From the IMG/VR virus record IMGVR_UViG_2718218396_000005: a DNA stretch of 20,163 nucleotides; one strand, 5' to 3'. The notes under the pieces were generated by a model. That model had not been told where the DNA came from, ran no database searches, and saw nothing but the letters and a program-made list of their open reading frames with translations. The DNA comes from a virus (taxonomy: Duplodnaviria > Heunggongvirae > Uroviricota > Caudoviricetes). Both the position numbers and the translations under genes were made by a program. Of the stretch, positions 1 through 14,886 are shown in pieces. Positions within the stretch are counted from its first letter, which is position 1. The number at the start of each line of letters is the position of its first letter.

Positions 1-199
1 ATCTACAAGTGCCTTTTTCTGTCAGCGGTTCTCCTTTCCAGCCAATGAGAACCGTCAGGCGCGCGCCCCGTGGCGGTAGCTGCAACTGACCATCTGCATC
101 ATCCAGCGTGATGGTGAGCTGGTCCGCCTCAAATCCCCGGTTGTCGGTCAGTGACAGGCTCATCAGGCGCTCTGCCACGCCTGACAGCGTTTTACCCTC
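1..199 (-). pseudogene. D: Tail protein D (P2 gpD / late control D family), distal part of a gene interrupted by IS629; runs off the left edge of the window
   Basis: Minus-strand translation read across the IS (1587->1510, then 196->1) gives MTDTTMQLLSQGTDHVKVPDFDILAE-GKTLSGRGRRLMSLSLTDNRGFEADQLTITLDDADGQLQLPPRGARLTVLIGWKGEPLTEKG. The SLTDxRGFEADQL.I.LDD.DG.LQLP.RGA...GWKG pattern is what I recall for gpD-family proteins. The frame is open to position 1. Confidence 0.6.
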
Positions 200-253
200 T
201 GAACCGCCCCGGGAATCCTGGAGACTAAACTCCCTGAGAAAGAGGTAAACAGG

Positions 254-580
254 ATGACTAAAAATACACGTTTTTCCCCCGAGGTCCGTCAACGGGCAGT
301 CCGTATGGTTCTGGAAAGTCAGGGCGAATATGACTCACAATGGGCGGCAATTTGTTCCATTGCCCCAAAGATTGGCTGTACACCAGAGACTCTGCGTGTG
401 TGGGTTCGTCAGCATGAGCGGGATACCGGGGGCGGTGATGGTGGACTCACCACCGCTGAACGTCAGCGTCTGAAAGAGCTGGAACGTGAAAATCGTGAAC
501 TGCGCCGCAGTAACGATATCCTTCGCCAGGCTTCCGCTTATTTTGCGAAGGCGGAGTTCGACCGCCTCTGGAAAAAATAA
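254..580 (+). CDS. IS629-like transposase OrfA (HTH / leucine-zipper DNA-binding subunit)
   Basis: 108-aa ORF from the track. GGAG-type RBS (AGAGG at 241-245) upstream. A6 run at 572-577 just before the stop is the likely -1 frameshift window for making the OrfAB fusion. Confidence 0.85.
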
Positions 581-1467
581 TGCCGCTGCTGGATAAGCTG
601 CGTGAGCAGTACGGGGTCGGACCGGTATGCAGTGAACTGCATATTGCCCCGTCAACGTATTACCACTGTCAGCAACAGCGACATCATCCGGATAAACGCA
701 GTGCCCGTGCGCAGCGCGATGACTGGCTGAAGAGAGAGATACAGCGCGTATACGATGAAAATCATCAGGTGTACGGTGTGCGTAAAGTCTGGCGCCAGTT
801 GTTACGCGAAGGTATCAGGGTGGCCAGATGTACAGTGGCGCGCCTCATGGCGGTTATGGGACTTGCCGGTGTTCTCCGGGGTAAAAAGGTCCGTACTACC
901 GTCAGCCGGAAAGCCGTTTCCGCAGGCGACCGCGTAAACCGTCAGTTCGTGGCAGAACGTCCTGACCAGCTGTGGGTGGCTGATTTTACTTACGTCAGCA
1001 CATGGCAGGGCTTCGTCTATGTGGCGTTCATCATTGATGTGTTTTCCGGATGTATCGTGGGGTGGCGAGTCTCATCGTCTATGGAAACGACATTCGTGCT
1101 GGATGCACTGGAGCAGGCGTTGTGGGCCCGTCGGCCGTCCGGCACAGTCCATCACAGTGATAAAGGTTCTCAGTATGTATCACTGGCCTATACGGAGCGA
1201 CTAAAAGAAGCAAAACTGCTGGCATCAACAGGGAGTACAGGTGACTCGTATGACAACGCGATGGCGGAGAGCATCAATGGTCTTTACAAAGCGGAGGTAA
1301 TACACCGTAAGAGCTGGAAAAACCGTGCAGAAGTGGAACTGGCCACACTCACGTGGGTGGACTGGTATAACAATCGACGATTGCTGGGAAGGCTGGGTCA
1401 TATCCCTCCGGCAGAAGCAGAAAAAGCTTATTATGCTTCCATCAGAAACGATGATCTGGCAGCCTGA
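580..1467 (+). CDS. IS629-like transposase OrfB (DDE integrase-type catalytic subunit)
   Basis: 295-aa ORF in the -1 frame relative to orfA, overlapping its stop (ATAATG). Contains the D...D...E region expected of an IS3-family catalytic core (..WVADFTYV.., ..HHSDKGSQY.., ..DNAMAESINGLYK..). Confidence 0.85.
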   Translation: MPLLDKLREQYGVGPVCSELHIAPSTYYHCQQQRHHPDKRSARAQRDDWLKREIQRVYDENHQVYGVRKVWRQLLREGIRVARCTVARLMAVMGLAGVLRGKKVRTTVSRKAVSAGDRVNRQFVAERPDQLWVADFTYVSTWQGFVYVAFIIDVFSGCIVGWRVSSSMETTFVLDALEQALWARRPSGTVHHSDKGSQYVSLAYTERLKEAKLLASTGSTGDSYDNAMAESINGLYKAEVIHRKSWKNRAEVELATLTWVDWYNNRRLLGRLGHIPPAEAEKAYYASIRNDDLAA

Positions 1468-1509
1468 GTTCACAGATAAAACACTCTCCAGGAAAACCGG
1501 GGCGGTTCA

Positions 1510-1587
1510 CTCCGCGAGAATATCAAAATCCGGCACTTTCACGTGGTCTGTGCCCTGACTGAGCAATTGCATGGTGGTGTCGGTCAT
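1510..1587 (-). pseudogene. D: Tail protein D, 5' fragment (start codon to IS629 insertion point)
   Basis: ATG at 1587-1585 on the minus strand, preceded by GGGAGG (reverse complement of 1594-1599) at 6-nt spacing. The frame runs without a stop into the IS right end at 1509 and resumes in the same frame at 196 once one copy of the CTC duplication is removed. Confidence 0.6.
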
Positions 1588-1745
1588 CTGTTCCCTCCCT
1601 GTGCGGCATGGTCGCATGTGCGTGCGGAGGGGGTTACTGCTTTTTGTTGTCGCCGTGGCGGGATGAACGGCGCAGGGGTGAGATTACGCGAGTGGTGGGT
1701 GATGATTGTTGCCGAATCATTTAACGGATACAAGGGGCTGAAGCT

Positions 1746-2930
1746 ATGAGTGAAACTCGTTTTCATGGTGCCCGTGTTACGGAAAGTACCGACCTGGTAA
1801 CAGCGATTAATGATGTTGATTCCAGTGTTATCGGTATCGTGGCAACGGCAGATGATGCGGACGCGGAGCTGTTCCCGCTGAACAAGCCCACACTGCTGAC
1901 CCGCGTCAATGACGTGCTGGGAAAATGCGGGACTACGGGGACGCTTTATCGTGCGCTTAAGGCTATCGCAGACCAGGTGAGCACAAAAGTGATCGTCGTT
2001 CGCGTGGCTGAACACAAAGAAGAAGGCGGTAAGACGCAGGATCAACTGGTTATCGGTGGTTCTGAATCTGACGGCAGCTATACGGGGATGTATGCGCTGC
2101 TTGTTGCAGAGCAGGATGAAAGCATCGGATACCGTCCGCGTATTCTGGCCGCGCCGGAGCTGGACACGGAGGCGGTAACAAAATCCCTGTGCGTGATTGC
2201 GGGTAAACTGCGCGCGTTTGTGTATGCCACATGTCATGGTTGTAACACGATGGCTGAGGCGATTACCTACCGCCAGAAATTCAACGAACGTGAGGTGATG
2301 CTCTTATGGCCTGACTTCATCGCCTACAACCTGAAAAGTGGCAAAAACGAAACGTTCCCCGCGCCTGCTTATGCGTGCGGCCTTCGTGCGTACATTGACC
2401 ATGAGCAGGGCTGGCACAAATCGCTGTCCAACGTTCCGGTTAAAAATGTGCTTGGGATGTCGAGGCATGTGTTCTGGTCGTTGCAGGCCGAAGACAGTGA
2501 TGCCAACAGCCTCAACAACAAAGAAATCACGACCATTATTCGTCGCAACGGGTTCCGCTTCTGGGGCAACCGCACACCGGAAACGAACGCCTACATCTTT
2601 GAGGTGTATACCCGAACCGCACAGGTGCTGGCTGATTCAATTGCGGAAGCGCAGTTTGAAACCATCGACAGTCCACTGACACCTGCGAACGTGAAGGATG
2701 TTATCAGTGCCATCAGGGCAAAACTGGATTCACTGGTTACTGCCGGGAAACTGATTGGCGCGGAGTGCTGGTATGACATCGAGGATAACAGCACCACGAA
2801 TTTACGTCAGGGGCGTGTGCGTATTCGCTACAAATATACGCCCGTTCCTCCGCTGGAAGACATGGAGCTTTACCAGTCGTTTACTGATGAATTCTTTGGT
2901 CCCGCATTTGCGGTGCTGGGAGGTGCCTGA
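1746..2930 (+). CDS. FI: Contractile tail sheath protein (P2 gpFI family)
   Basis: 394-aa ORF with AAGGGG RBS. Shares blocks I recall from P2 FI (ADDADAE.FPLNKP, LRAF.Y, WPDF, GLRA.ID.EQGWHK.LSNV, IRR.GFRFWGNRT, YTRTAQV.AD, YTPVPPLE). Stop overlaps the FII start (TGATG). Confidence 0.9.
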   Translation: MSETRFHGARVTESTDLVTAINDVDSSVIGIVATADDADAELFPLNKPTLLTRVNDVLGKCGTTGTLYRALKAIADQVSTKVIVVRVAEHKEEGGKTQDQLVIGGSESDGSYTGMYALLVAEQDESIGYRPRILAAPELDTEAVTKSLCVIAGKLRAFVYATCHGCNTMAEAITYRQKFNEREVMLLWPDFIAYNLKSGKNETFPAPAYACGLRAYIDHEQGWHKSLSNVPVKNVLGMSRHVFWSLQAEDSDANSLNNKEITTIIRRNGFRFWGNRTPETNAYIFEVYTRTAQVLADSIAEAQFETIDSPLTPANVKDVISAIRAKLDSLVTAGKLIGAECWYDIEDNSTTNLRQGRVRIRYKYTPVPPLEDMELYQSFTDEFFGPAFAVLGGA

Positions 2931-3862: not shown

Positions 3863-4026
3863 TCACGGTTGTGTGCTTTGAGCACATAGAAGACTTTGTG
3901 GCAGATATTGCCGTTATTTTTAACTGGTCGCCCGCCGAAATCTTCATGATGACGCCCGGCGAAGTGGTTAGCTGGCGTGAGCGGGCGGCACTTCGCAGCG
4001 GGAATGCAGACAATGAAGACTCTTGA
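3497..4026 (+). CDS. Tail assembly chaperone E+E' made by programmed -1 ribosomal frameshift at 3808-3814
   Basis: Zero-frame codons AAT TTT TTG place the heptamer T TTT TTG at 3808-3814. After a -1 slip the reading continues ERCGLWREERTGDGSLITVVCFEHIEDFVADIAVIFNWSPAEIFMMTPGEVVSWRERAALRSGNADNEDS to the stop at 4024-4026, which is the 78-aa track ORF 3790..4026. Confidence 0.75.
3808..3814 (+). promoter_or_regulatory. Slippery heptamer T_TTT_TTG for the E/E' -1 frameshift
   Basis: X XXY YYZ motif in the E zero frame, with the -1 frame open downstream for 70 codons. Confidence 0.7.
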
Positions 4027-6103
4027 TATCCGGGTCGCTTTCAGCGCCGTTGACAGGCTGACCCGACCTGCCGAAAACGCACGCCGCCTGATGGGGCAGT
4101 TTGGTGACTCCATCCAGCGAACGCAGGGGGCGATCAAAAATCTCGAGCGTCAGGCGCGATCATTTGAGCGCGCCCGCGACGCTGTCAGTAAAGCGGATGC
4201 TGGCATCGTGAAAGCACGACGCCAGCTTAACGCCCTTAATCAGTTACAACGCACGGGTACAGTGCTCAGCGAAAAACAACAAAAGCTGATGCAGCAGTTA
4301 AGCACCCGGCTTGAACGCCTGAATGAATCGCGCACACGGGAAATTCAGAAAATGAGGGAACTTGGCGGAGAGCTGAAACGCCACGGCATTTCCCTGACAG
4401 GCAGCGATAACACCATTCAGCAGGCCATCAGACGCACCGAACAATACAACAACCAGCTTGAACGCGAACGGCAGGCGCTTGCGCGTGTAACGCAGGCGCG
4501 TGAGCGGTATTCGCACGCGCAGGAAACCGCGGGAAAACTGAAAACAGGTGGTGCGCTGGCAATTGGTGCGGCAGCGGCGGGCGGCTATGCTGCCGGGCGT
4601 TTTTTGCAGCCTGCGATCGGGTTCGGCAAAGAGATGTCCCGCGTTCAGGCACTGACGCGAATCGACAAAAACAGCCCGCAGTTTAAGGCGCTGCGTGAGC
4701 AGGCGTTAAAACTTGCTGAAACACAGTTTACTGCGAGTGATGCCGCCAGTGGGCAGAGCTTTCTGGCAATGGCTGGTTTTACTCCGCAGGCCATTCAGGC
4801 CGCATTGCCCGGTGTTCTTAATATGGCGCTGGCAGGTGGCGTCGAACTCGGCGAGACGGCTGATATAGGCTCCAATATCCTCACACAGTTCAACCTGACA
4901 GCCGATCAAATGGACCGGGTGGGCGATACGCTGACAGCAGCATTTACCCGGACCAATACTGATTTACGCGCGCTGGGCGAAACCATGAAGTATACCGGTC
5001 CGGTTGCCGCAAAACTTGGTATCAGTCTTGAAGAAGCGGCGGCCATGGCCGGGATGCTTGCCAATAATGGTCTTCGCGGAAGCGATGCTGGCACGGCCAT
5101 GCGCGCAAGTCTGTCCCGCCTTGCATCACCGCCAAAAGCTGCGGCTGATGCACTGAAAGAGCTGGGGGTGTCAGTTGCTGAGGCCAGAGGCAAAATGCGC
5201 CCGATGGAGGATGTGCTGCTTGATCTCTATAAGGCGACACAAAAATACGGACAGGTGGACCAGGTCTCCTTCTTCAAGGACATCGCCGGAGAAGAGGCGT
5301 TCGTTGGTTTGCAGACGCTTGTTGCGGCGGCTGGTTCAGGAGAGCTGCAAAAACTGACCAGAGAATTGCAGGGGGCAAGGGGAGAGGCCGATCGCGTCGC
5401 AAAAGTAATGGCTGATAATCTTGATGGGGACCTGAAAAATCTCGACAGCGCATGGGAAGGTCTTCGTATTCGCATCAGTGATCTGGTTGACGGTCCGCTG
5501 CGTTCTGTCACGCAGTGGCTCACGCGGGTGCTTGAAAAAATCACCTCGCTGGCGCAGGCCCATCCGGTACTGACGCGCCAGCTACTGATAGCAGGCGGTG
5601 CGTTGCTGGCAATGACTGCAACGATTGGCTCGTTGTCGCTGGTTATTGGGGTGCTTTACGGGAAGCTGGCCACCCTGCGTCTTGGTTTTGACATTCTTAC
5701 CCGGTCAATGAATGTCGTCAGGGTGTTACCTGCGCTATGGGGAATGGTGACGGGTTCCGTTTCTTTACTGGGAGGCGTTATCGGGGCGTTGTTCAGTCCG
5801 GTTGGTCTTATCGTGGCTGCGCTTGCCGGAGCTGCCGTTCTTATCTGGAAATACTGGGATCCTATCAGGGCTTTCTTTGCCGGGGTGTTCAGCGGGATTA
5901 TGGAAAGGCTGACCCCGTTGCGCGACACCTTTGAACGGTTTGGCCCTGTTTTTGACGTAATCGGAAGCGGTTCAGCCAGGTGTTTAACTGGTTTAAATCG
6001 CTGCTGTCACCGATGGAGTCCAGCAAGGAAACGCTGGATAAATGTACCAGTGCTGGCGAGGTATTCGGTAACGTTCTTGGTGGTGCGTTACAGCTTGTTC
6101 TGA
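4013..6103 (+). CDS. T: Tail tape measure protein (P2 gpT family), N-terminal and central part, ending prematurely after an apparent frameshift near 5956-5980
   Basis: Long ORF straight after E/E'. Coiled-coil-rich N-terminal third, alanine/glycine-rich central part and hydrophobic segments are typical of tape measure proteins. ATG 4013 (MKTLDIRV) is preferred over the track's GTG 3977 because it overlaps the E' end. The last 45 codons (RCLTGLNRCCHRWSP...) look like out-of-frame junk. Confidence 0.75.
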   Translation: MKTLDIRVAFSAVDRLTRPAENARRLMGQFGDSIQRTQGAIKNLERQARSFERARDAVSKADAGIVKARRQLNALNQLQRTGTVLSEKQQKLMQQLSTRLERLNESRTREIQKMRELGGELKRHGISLTGSDNTIQQAIRRTEQYNNQLERERQALARVTQARERYSHAQETAGKLKTGGALAIGAAAAGGYAAGRFLQPAIGFGKEMSRVQALTRIDKNSPQFKALREQALKLAETQFTASDAASGQSFLAMAGFTPQAIQAALPGVLNMALAGGVELGETADIGSNILTQFNLTADQMDRVGDTLTAAFTRTNTDLRALGETMKYTGPVAAKLGISLEEAAAMAGMLANNGLRGSDAGTAMRASLSRLASPPKAAADALKELGVSVAEARGKMRPMEDVLLDLYKATQKYGQVDQVSFFKDIAGEEAFVGLQTLVAAAGSGELQKLTRELQGARGEADRVAKVMADNLDGDLKNLDSAWEGLRIRISDLVDGPLRSVTQWLTRVLEKITSLAQAHPVLTRQLLIAGGALLAMTATIGSLSLVIGVLYGKLATLRLGFDILTRSMNVVRVLPALWGMVTGSVSLLGGVIGALFSPVGLIVAALAGAAVLIWKYWDPIRAFFAGVFSGIMERLTPLRDTFERFGPVFDVIGSGSARCLTGLNRCCHRWSPARKRWINVPVLARYSVTFLVVRYSLF

Positions 6104-6816
6104 CGCCTGCAAAAATGTTGCTGGATACGCTGGCGTGGATACTTGAAAAACTCGGTGTGCTTCCGGATGAAGCGGAAAGGGCGCGCAAGAAAATCGAAGA
6201 CGCACAACGTGCGGCCATTCTTCAGGACAAGGTTGCTCTGTTTCAGGGAGACATTGCGAAAATCAATCCGCCGAAGTCTGCGGGAAATAGCAATGGCACC
6301 GGAGATGATAAACCCAAAGACAACAAACCTCTCACAGACAGCAATACCGGCACGCTACGCAGACTCAGCAAAATTGCTGATAACACAGGTAAGCTGGTTG
6401 ATGAGACAAAAAAACGCATTGGCCCCGGCGATATTGTCTTTAAGAACCTGCCCCGCGCACTTGCTGTTCGTGGGGAGTGGCAGGAGCGGAAGATTGCGCA
6501 GGTCAGTAAGCCTGCCCCCGCAATTAATATCACACCCGTGGTCCCGGCTCCGCTGCCTCCGGCGCTGGTCCCTGTTGTTGCGGCCAGCTCCCGCCCGGTG
6601 GTGGAGGCCATACGATCGCCAGTGGCATCAGTTCCTGCAACTTCCCGTAACCGGGAGCCTGTTGCCTCCGGATTTGGCGGTGAAATTCATGTTCATCTGC
6701 ATAACGTTGTTACGCAGAATCCCCGCGAACTGGCGAAACTGGTCGGCGAAATGGTCAGGGCAGAAATGGAACGGCGCGCCCGTGCCAGGCGTGGCAGTTT
6801 TTACGATAAAGATTGA
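5956..6816 (+). CDS. T: Tail tape measure protein, C-terminal part in the +1 frame (continuation of gene T after the frameshift)
   Basis: This frame opens after a stop at 5953-5955 and reads ..SQVFNWFKSLLSPMESSKETL... to a stop at 6814-6816 immediately before the U gene. The track starts this ORF at GTG 5980. Confidence 0.65.
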   Translation, partial: RNRKRFSQVFNWFKSLLSPMESSKETLDKCTSAGEVFGNVLGGALQLVLTPAKMLLDTLAWILEKLGVLPDEAERARKKIEDAQRAAILQDKVALFQGDIAKINPPKSAGNSNGTGDDKPKDNKPLTDSNTGTLRRLSKIADNTGKLVDETKKRIGPGDIVFKNLPRALAVRGEWQERKIAQVSKPAPAINITPVVPAPLPPALVPVVAASSRPVVEAIRSPVASVPATSRNREPVASGFGGEIHVHLHNVVTQNPRELAKLVGEMVRAEMERRARARRGSFYDKD

Positions 6817-7473: not shown

Positions 7474-8046
7474 GTGCTATCTTACTTAATGGCAATTCAC
7501 TTTGTTTTATTTGGAAACTCTACTAATTTAAAAAACTTCTGGAAACATGAAGTAATTCGGCGGAAACGTATGGATATCTGGAGGCTTTTAAGAGAGAAAA
7601 AACAGCGTAACCGGAATTTCCTTTTCTGGTGGCGGTTGGCTAACGAAATGTATATTAATGGTAATAAATTACATAAGAAAGCAGCCAAAAAGTTAAACAG
7701 TAAAATAATTAACAAGTTTGGTTGTGAAATAGGATTGGGCGCAAATATTGGAAAAGGGTTGACAATTCCCCATCATGCTGGAATTGTTGTTCATTTTGCT
7801 GTTGATGCGGGTGAAAATCTGGTATTACGACAGAATACTACCATTGGACAGATAGATGGTGATATGCCTAGTTCAAGAGTAAAAATTGGTAGTAACGTTG
7901 ATATCGGAGCTAATTGTTGCATCATTGGATTATCACGTAAAATTGGGGATAATGTAAAAATAGGTGCAATGTCTTTTATAAATAAAGATATACCATCAAA
8001 CTGCACATATATAACTAAAAAGAGTGGTGTTGTATTGTATAAATAG
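7474..8046 (+). CDS. Hexapeptide-repeat (left-handed beta-helix) acyltransferase, serine O-acetyltransferase-like; low-GC cargo gene
   Basis: Strong RBS TAAGGAG at 7461-7467 with GTG 7474 at 6 nt (ATG 7489 is an alternative; the track's GTG 7441 would put the RBS inside the gene). Hexapeptide repeats IGLGANIGKGLTI / HHAGIVVHF / IGSNVDIGANCCIIG / IGDNVKIGAMSFI, and an N-terminal helical segment resembling CysE/WcaB-type acetyltransferases. Visibly AT-rich relative to the flanking tail genes. Confidence 0.75.
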   Translation: MLSYLMAIHFVLFGNSTNLKNFWKHEVIRRKRMDIWRLLREKKQRNRNFLFWWRLANEMYINGNKLHKKAAKKLNSKIINKFGCEIGLGANIGKGLTIPHHAGIVVHFAVDAGENLVLRQNTTIGQIDGDMPSSRVKIGSNVDIGANCCIIGLSRKIGDNVKIGAMSFINKDIPSNCTYITKKSGVVLYK

Positions 8047-8090: not shown

Positions 8091-8622
8091 TATTGTGGGG
8101 CGACTGGCCACTCAACATCCGCTGCTACTGTTGTATCAACACGATTCAACAATACCCGATATGTCTTCCATGCAGCCAGTAACGATGCCTCTTCCTCCGT
8201 CGCAATATCCAAATCTACGGCATCCTGAAGTGGCGCAATATGCTCACTGGCTACCTGCATCAGGCTGTTTTTTGTTTCTTCTGCCTCCCGTACCCGAAAC
8301 AGTTTTTCTGCTTCTGCATCTTTCGCCCAGGATGTGCCGTTCCACTTCTGACACTCTCCATCCGGCGACAACCAGGTAACATTTTCCGGTAACGGACCGA
8401 GTTCAGAAATAAATAACGCGTCGCCGGAAGCCACGTCATAAACCGTTTTACCCCGATGATCTTCAACGAGATGCCACGATGCCTCATTACTGTTGAAAAC
8501 AGCCACGAAGCCAGCCGGAATATCTGGCGGTGCAATATCGGTACTGTTTGCTGGCAGACCTGTATGAGGCGGAATGTATGCGTCACCTTCACCAATAAAT
8601 TCATTAGTTCCGGCCAGCAGAT
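8090..8622 (-). pseudogene. tfa: Tail fibre assembly protein (Tfa / P2 gpG family), 5' end removed by the IS629 copy at 8623
   Basis: Track ORF 8090..8506 ([57 protein letters not shown]...). The same frame stays open upstream to the IS boundary, reading [39 protein letters not shown] before the GTG. This matches my memory of E. coli Tfa proteins, which have about 15 more residues at the N-terminus. Confidence 0.7.
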
Positions 8623-9679
8623 TGAACCGCCCCGGGAATCCTGGAGACTAAACTCCCTGAGAAAGAGGTAAACAGGATGACTAAAAATACACGTTTTTCC
8701 CCCGAGGTCCGTCAACGGGCAGTCCGTATGGTTCTGGAAAGTCAGGGCGAATATGACTCACAATGGGCGGCAATTCGTTCCATTGCCCCAAAGATTGGCT
8801 GTACACCAGAGACTCTGCGTGTGTGGGTTCGTCAGCATGAGCGGGATACCGGGGGCGGTGATGGTGGACTCACCACCGCTGAACGTCAGCGTCTGAAAGA
8901 GCTGGAACGTGAAAATCGTGAACTGCGCCGCAGTAACGATATCCTTCGCCAGGCTTCCGCTTATTTTGCGAAGGCGGAGTTCGACCGCCTCTGGAAAAAA
9001 TAATGCCGCTGCTGGATAAGCTGCGTGAGCAGTACGGGGTCGGACCGGTATGCAGTGAACTGCATATTGCCCCGTCAACGTATTACCACTGTCAGCAACA
9101 GCGACATCATCCGGATAAACGCAGTGCCCGTGCGCAGCGCGATGACTGGCTGAAGAGAGAGATACAGCGCGTATACGATGAAAATCATCAGGTGTACGGT
9201 GTGCGTAAAGTCTGGCGCCAGTTGTTACGCGAAGGTATCAGGGTGGCCAGATGTACAGTGGCGCGCCTCATGGCGGTTATGGGACTTGCCGGTGTTCTCC
9301 GGGGTAAAAAGGTCCGTACTACCGTCAGCCGGAAAGCCGTTTCCGCAGGCGACCGCGTAAACCGTCAGTTCGTGGCAGAACGTCCTGACCAGCTGTGGGT
9401 GGCTGATTTTACTTACGTCAGCACATGGCAGGGCTTCGTCTATGTGGCGTTCATCATTGATGTGTTTTCCGGATGTATCGTGGGGTGGCGAGTCTCATCG
9501 TCTATGGAAACGACATTCGTGCTGGATGCACTGGAGCAGGCGTTGTGGGCCCGTCGGCCGTCCGGCACAGTCCATCACAGTGATAAAGGTTCTCAGTATG
9601 TATCACTGGCCTATACGGAGCGACTAAAAGAAGCAAAACTGCTGGCATCAACAGGGAGTACAGGTGACTCGTATGACAA
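8623..9679 (+). mobile_element. IS629-like element, second copy, truncated at the 3' end (first 1057 of 1310 bp); no right inverted repeat and no target duplication
   Basis: Colinear with copy 1 from the left end TGAACCGCCCCGG (8623) through position 9679, with one mismatch seen in the translation (copy 1 T353 vs copy 2 C8776; OrfA Cys vs Arg). From 9680 the sequence is unrelated and AT-rich. Confidence 0.8.
8677..9003 (+). CDS. IS629-like transposase OrfA (copy 2)
   Basis: 108-aa ORF identical to copy 1 OrfA except C->R at residue 34. Confidence 0.8.
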
Positions 9680-14564: not shown

Positions 14565-14744
14565 GGTGTGGCCTCTTTGCTCGGTGATAGAAATAACTCA
14601 CCATCCAGAGTTGAGAATCTCGGGGTGGCGAGACGTACAGGGTTCTCAACACCGGAGAGCAAAGAATCCGGCCCGACCGAAGTCGGCCCCGTACGCCCCG
14701 CCATAATTCTGACGCGAAAAAGACGTGGCAATACAGTACGCACA

Positions 14745-14765
14745 AAAAAACCGCTAGCGCGGTTA
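14745..14765 (-). terminator. Rho-independent terminator inside the early operon (minus strand)
   Basis: On the minus strand, stem AACCGC / GCGGTT with loop GCTA followed by a run of T (plus strand A run at 14745-14751). It lies about 120 nt downstream of the 99-aa gene stop. Confidence 0.45.
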
Positions 14766-14886
14766 TGCGCTTTGCTCTGTATCGGGTTGAGAATCCCGGC
14801 ACCCGTTTTATGAGGTGCAGCGGAAATGTAACCTGACCGATTGCGGCATGGCAAGCGGTTTTTTTGTGTGTGCATGTTCTGGTTTC

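Follow-up and report, generated by a model that had tools for sequence, protein, structure and literature searches.

A complete IS629 insertion in the remnant of tail gene D of a P2-like prophage of Escherichia coli O157:H7 strain 7784

The stretch of DNA analysed here, termed the window, is 20,163 bp in length and is identical to positions 2441984-2462146 (reverse strand) of the chromosome of E. coli O157:H7 strain 7784 (NZ_CP018247.1). Strain 7784 originates from cattle faeces in the UK; its genome sequence (CP018247) comes from Shaaban et al. 2016 (PMC5359411). The window contains a decayed P2-like prophage that is flanked by the leuZ tRNA cluster and yecA. Its tail genes consist of the tail sheath gene FI, the tail tube gene FII, E/E′, a frameshifted tape-measure gene T and gene U, and these are followed by an acetyltransferase gene, a tail-fibre-assembly remnant and a truncated IS629. 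The remaining prophage genes are par genes and genes for a replication endonuclease, early functions, an epsilon-like derepression protein, a repressor and an integrase. The gene annotation of strains 7784 and Z1835 shows no head, baseplate or fibre genes in the prophage.

The only P2-like prophage of O157 Sakai is Sp13, a highly defective element in which most morphogenetic genes are missing (PMC2669165). The prophage in the window is taken to be the Sp13 equivalent because Sp13 is the sole prophage of this type in O157 Sakai. Despite its defects, Sp13 has been reported to excise, to replicate and to be packaged, and its induction by mitomycin C was described as unexpected (PMC2669165).

Several features of the prophage lie apart from gene D. 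The tape-measure gene T (window 4013-6816) is frameshifted and annotated by PGAP as a pseudogene, with two overlapping open reading frames at 3977-6103 and 5980-6816; the frameshift is another inactivating lesion of the tail module. A hexapeptide-repeat acetyltransferase gene is found after U at 7474-8046 (+ strand). Its product is serine O-acetyltransferase/WcaB-like, with matches below the family cutoffs, and P88-like relatives carry a DNA invertase at this place. The acetyltransferase gene is possibly a moron gene. Within the annotated tail-fibre-assembly gene, at 8127-8325 (- strand), Rfam gives a full-length match to IS009 (RF02111, 191.4 bits). In the early region, Rfam matches to the C4 antisense RNA (14621-14708, - strand, 78.5 bits) and to the isrK Hfq-binding RNA (14744-14818, - strand, 63 bits) adjoin the epsilon-like 'derepression protein' gene. 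This arrangement resembles a P1/P7-type antisense immunity module within a P2-like prophage.

A complete insertion sequence of the IS629 type is situated near the left end of the window. IS3-family elements are about 1.2-1.5 kb in length, have terminal inverted repeats that end in 5′-TG...CA-3′ and carry overlapping orfA and orfB reading frames. The element found here shows the properties of IS3/IS629 with respect to its size and TG...CA ends, its orfA and orfB frames with a -1 phase, and a duplication in the 3-4 bp range. It extends from 200 to 1509 (+ strand), a length of 1,310 bp, and its termini read TGAAC...GTTCA. The left terminal inverted repeat, IRL (200-224, + strand), has the sequence TGAACCGCCCCGGGAATCCTGGAGA, and the right repeat, IRR (1485-1509, + strand), reads TGAACCGCCCCGGTTTTCCTGGAGA when reverse-complemented; comparison of these two 25 bp repeats gives a match at 22 of 25 positions. 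On either side of the element is the trinucleotide CTC, at 197-199 and 1510-1512. An earlier note on this DNA had described a clean IS629 insertion in tail gene D at 197-1512, with an element of exactly 1310 bp, both inverted repeats present and CTC duplicated on each side, and this description is correct to the base.

The orfA frame (254-580, + strand) encodes 108 amino acids with an HTH_Tnp_1 domain (PF01527, E = 1.3e-12). The orfB frame (580-1467, + strand), which is in the -1 phase relative to orfA, encodes 295 amino acids with an HTH_21 domain (PF13276, E = 5e-18) and the rve DDE integrase core (PF00665, E = 1e-26). An ALIL frameshift-stimulating pseudoknot is detected at 535-651 (+ strand; RF01497, 120.9 bits relative to a gathering score of 50), and an A6 slippery run at 572-577 (+ strand) lies inside this match. 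From the pseudoknot and the A6 run, orfA and orfB are predicted to be joined by programmed frameshifting, and PGAP also annotates a programmed frameshift in the element. The copy is apparently functional, as assumed from its intact open reading frames. Other copies within strain 7784, and copies in many O157:H7 genomes, have the same sequence over the full length (100% identity). The strain 7784 genome contains about 16 places that match the element, and at least one of these (1646914-1648223) is full length at 100% identity. The name IS629 is used on the basis of identity to O157:H7 copies so called in the literature (PMC3271280, PMC5359411).

The element is inserted in a minus-strand reading frame that was identified as gene D, the gene for the P2-type baseplate hub, also called 'late control D'. 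Codons 1-25 of gpD are found to the right of the insertion at 1513-1587 (- strand), with the ATG at 1587-1585; window position 1587 corresponds to the end of the pseudogene annotated by PGAP in strain Z1835 (L002 6274). The right CTC copy represents codon 26 (GAG). To the left of the insertion, at 8-196 (- strand), is a gpD remnant comprising codons 27-89, which has 97% identity to the full-length D of strain 2011C-3911 (L004), falls in phrog_52 and carries the PGAP label 'phage late control D family protein' (pseudogene). The insertion thus lies directly after codon 26, in agreement with the interruption after about 26 codons that had been proposed. In the disrupted allele the D frame immediately stops at a TGA that the IS itself supplies with the first three bases of its end.

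When the element and one CTC are removed in silico, the minus-strand frame reads MTDTTMQLLSQGTDHVKVPDFDILAEGKTLSGVAERLMSLSLTDNRGFEADQLTITLDDADGQLQLPPRGARLTVLIGWKGEPLTEKGT. The homology search that the earlier note had put forward as a check of the restored frame was performed with this sequence. The restored fragment displays 97% identity over 89 amino acids to residues 1-89 of a 369-amino-acid protein that strain 2011C-3911 encodes at this chromosomal locus, and it matches phrog_52, 'tail protein', with E = 1.2e-31. The 369-amino-acid protein contains the Phage_GPD domain (PF05954) at residues 91-349, with 63.1 bits relative to a cutoff of 30.1. Its identity is 99.5% to the 'Gene D protein' of P88_4B11, a P88-like phage of the genus Xuanwuvirus, and about 48% to D proteins of P2-type phages. 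The 91-amino-acid restored fragment itself has no Pfam or NCBIfam match, because the Phage_GPD domain covers residues 91-349 of the full-length protein. On these similarities the interrupted open reading frame is assigned to the gpD family. The position of the gene also fits a P2-type tail module, next to FI-FII-E-T-U, with ogr present in the relatives and deleted here. The proposal that excision would restore an uninterrupted gpD-like frame is borne out, subject to a correction. The restored frame is gpD-like and contiguous, but it is an 89-codon fragment of a gene that was previously a pseudogene.

The trinucleotide duplication is weak evidence when taken alone, as a 3 bp match is expected by chance in 1 of 64 cases, and the empty site was therefore used as the real test. 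In strain Z1835 (L002) the site reads TTTACC-CTC-CGCGAG, with one CTC; with longer flanks, the sequence is ...GCGTTTTACC-CTC-CGCGAGAAT.... At the filled site, the junction consists of CAGCGTTTTACCCTC on one side and TGAACCGCCCCGGGA on the other. After removal of the element and one CTC, the first 480 nt of the window are identical to Z1835, and the window as a whole has 100.0% identity to this strain, with the Z1835 match shorter by 1,313 bp (1,310 + 3). Two 201 bp probes, one across the filled left junction and one across the empty site, were compared with 5,426 complete E. coli genomes. In 1,356 genomes the empty-site probe is matched without a break; there the flanks form one target with a single CTC, and this comparison bears out the single contiguous target that had been expected in relatives. 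The probe for the filled left junction has full coverage in one genome only, that of strain 7784 itself, and an exact-match scan of metagenome contigs and GTDB representative genomes detected no filled left junction. At least 80% of the window is carried by 265 genomes, so that 264, which are among the 1,356 with the contiguous site, have an Sp13-type element without the IS. The empty site is present too in non-O157 relatives with intact D genes. The insertion is recent and private to the strain.

These comparisons bear on two other explanations of the locus. As there are about 16 IS-matching places in the genome and one assembly alone shows the insertion, a repeated IS might have been misplaced in the PacBio assembly of strain 7784. 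But misplacement would not produce an exact 3 bp duplication of unique flanks around a complete element, and polymorphism of IS629 sites between strains is usual (PMC3271280); an assembly artefact is given a very low probability. Alternatively, the insertion might be ancestral in O157:H7 and have been precisely excised from all other strains with the aid of the IS-excision enhancer (IEE). IEE-promoted precise excision of IS629 in O157:H7 is documented (bioRxiv 10.1101/2023.06.07.543989; PMC9943667), and it would yield exactly the single-CTC site that is observed. However, the site is filled in one of the 5,426 complete genomes and empty in 1,356, and the empty site extends to the non-O157 relatives whose D gene is intact. 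Very many independent scar-free excisions would have to be assumed in place of one insertion, which is very unparsimonious, and an ancestral insertion is considered highly improbable.

Gene D had been damaged before it received IS629. An IS30-family element lies in gpD after codon 89 (L001 4833-6007), with an apparent 2 bp duplication, AG, and inverted repeats TGTAGATTCAAT... at L001 4833 and 6007. Only the tip of this element is in the window: the last 7 bp (ATCTACA) of its right inverted repeat occupy positions 1-7 and the rest is just outside, with the end of the transposase coding sequence one base ahead of window position 1. The distance between its inverted repeats is 1,175 bp. As canonical IS30 is 1,221 bp in length, this copy appears to be without about 46 bp near the 5′ end, including the usual start codon; PGAP annotates a 378-amino-acid IS30 transposase that starts with GTG. 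The IS30-family element was considered as the point where D is truncated, and this was rejected. It represents a simple insertion with the apparent AG duplication; about 75 bp of D sequence continue past it before a jump of about 1.5 kb, which is a separate deletion.

This deletion, at L001 ~4757, joins the positions that correspond to ~7294 and ~8830 of L004. It has removed gpD codons ~116-369, the late activator gene ogr and the hok/gef toxin gene, all of which are present in the intact relative at the leuZ-yecA locus (L004). Of the O157 copies, those of strains 7784 and Z1835 were examined, and each has the two D lesions; in Z1835 the PGAP annotation is that of an 89-codon D pseudogene, 'missing C-terminus'. 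A full-length D has a coding capacity of about 370-390 amino acids; in strain 7784, codons 1 to ~115 survive and are split by the IS30-family element and IS629. Gene D was a pseudogene before IS629 arrived. Excision of IS629 restores only the 89-codon fragment because D is split after codon 89 and its 3′ two-thirds are deleted.

It might be argued that IS629 knocked out a working tail gene and in this way inactivated the tail module, as the element is inside the D frame after codon 26 and creates an immediate stop codon. The state of the locus in empty-site strains refutes this: in Z1835 D is already a pseudogene by the IS30-family insertion and by the loss of codons ~116-369 together with ogr. 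In addition, T is frameshifted, the head, baseplate and fibre genes are absent, and Sp13 is without most morphogenetic genes (PMC2669165). The probability that a functional gene was hit is thus next to nothing. As D was already dead, IS629 disrupted nothing functional. Because the target was non-functional, the insertion was most likely selectively neutral.

The orientation of D relative to its neighbours is a separate matter. In P2, D and the FI-U genes are co-directional. In the window, D (- strand) and the tail-sheath gene FI (+ strand) diverge from an intergenic region at 1588-1745, which is untouched by the IS and has the same layout in L004 and L005. An inversion of D mediated by the IS was considered and rejected, since the divergent layout is shared by L003 and L004, from the same locus, and by phage P88_4B11 (L005). 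P88-like (Xuanwuvirus) phages and prophages normally have D divergent from FI-FII-E-E′-T-U. Late promoters would be expected in the 1588-1745 region. In window positions 1-1800, a sigma-70 consensus scan detected no promoter-like sites, and a terminator scan gave terminator-like sites at chance level.

IS629 shares the orientation of FI and lies 236 bp upstream of it, so that the insertion may influence FI-U transcription. The prophage has lost its own late activator, ogr. Read-through from the IS, or an outward-facing promoter within it, could conceivably drive the sheath and tube genes without ogr. Separately, given the excision, replication and packaging reported for Sp13 (PMC2669165), this IS copy now resides on a mobile element, and Sp13 could carry it to new hosts. 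Such expression from the IS and such transfer are regarded as improbable.

A second copy of IS629 in the window, at 8623-9679, differs from the first. It comprises IS positions 1-1057, has one mismatch to copy 1 and is missing the right inverted repeat. The earlier note had called copy 1 a simple transposition event, unlike copy 2, and the abrupt end of copy 2 at IS position 1057, with no IRR, bears this out. As one base differs and the IRR is missing, copy 2 is not the donor of copy 1, nor is it a simple insertion. It has the tail-fibre-assembly remnant on one side and the par/ParM genes on the other, and the head, baseplate and fibre genes of P88-like relatives are missing at this point. This suggests an IS-adjacent deletion at copy 2. 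Copy 2 is found also in the empty-site O157 strains.

The sequences show where the element ends, that CTC is duplicated around it, that relatives have the site empty and which gene was the target. With near certainty, a full-length IS629 transposed, in the lineage of strain 7784, into the 5′ remnant of gene D of an Sp13-type prophage, and the target was already non-functional. IS3-family elements move by way of a copy-out-paste-in process (bioRxiv 10.1101/2023.06.07.543989). By analogy with published work on this family, the donor IS629 copy would have stayed in place; potential donors are the identical copies elsewhere in the strain 7784 genome. Frameshifting by -1 at the A6 run, stimulated by the ALIL pseudoknot, would produce an OrfAB fusion transposase. 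This transposase would generate a circular copy of the IS, which would then integrate at the CTC in the gene D remnant. The IS30-family insertion, the loss of codons ~116-369 with ogr and hok, the frameshift in T and the loss of head, baseplate and fibre genes all preceded this event.

The event is of a known kind, and annotations of the IS and of the D pseudogene exist in RefSeq already. It is one instance of the known polymorphism of IS629 insertions among O157:H7 strains. The biological weight is very small: a decayed prophage has received, in one of its pseudogenes, an IS3-family insertion of the textbook kind. Of practical use is that the site can serve IS629-based typing of O157:H7 as a marker specific to a strain or lineage. 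The locus also offers a clean worked example, with filled site, empty site and 3 bp duplication, of continuing IS629 activity in O157:H7.

Comparison with known systems can be made at the levels of the prophage, the gene and the insertion sequence. Like Sp13, the prophage of strain 7784 is P2-like, has integrase, repressor, replication endonuclease and epsilon-like derepression genes, and has a tail module that is reduced to a stump; it likewise belongs to an element found in nearly all O157 strains (PMC2669165; PMC5359411). It differs from Sp13 in having one additional IS629. With gene D of P88-like phages (Xuanwuvirus, Peduoviridae) and P2 gpD as references, the shared feature is a divergent D next to FI-FII-E-E′-T-U. 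In contrast to the P88-like gene, D is here a remnant that is split by IS629 and an IS30-family element and has lost its 3′ end, and whereas relatives have ogr and hok beyond D, both are deleted in strain 7784. The IS629 (= IS1203/IS1203v) of O157:H7 has in common with the window element the length of 1,310 bp, the TG...CA ends, imperfect 25 bp repeats, orfA and orfB in phases 0 and -1, the ALIL pseudoknot, a 3 bp duplication and a location in a prophage. IS629 copies in O157:H7 are accompanied by 3-4 bp duplications, and 62% of them are in prophages (PMC3271280). The element itself shows no differences from catalogued IS629, and the insertion site alone is private to strain 7784.
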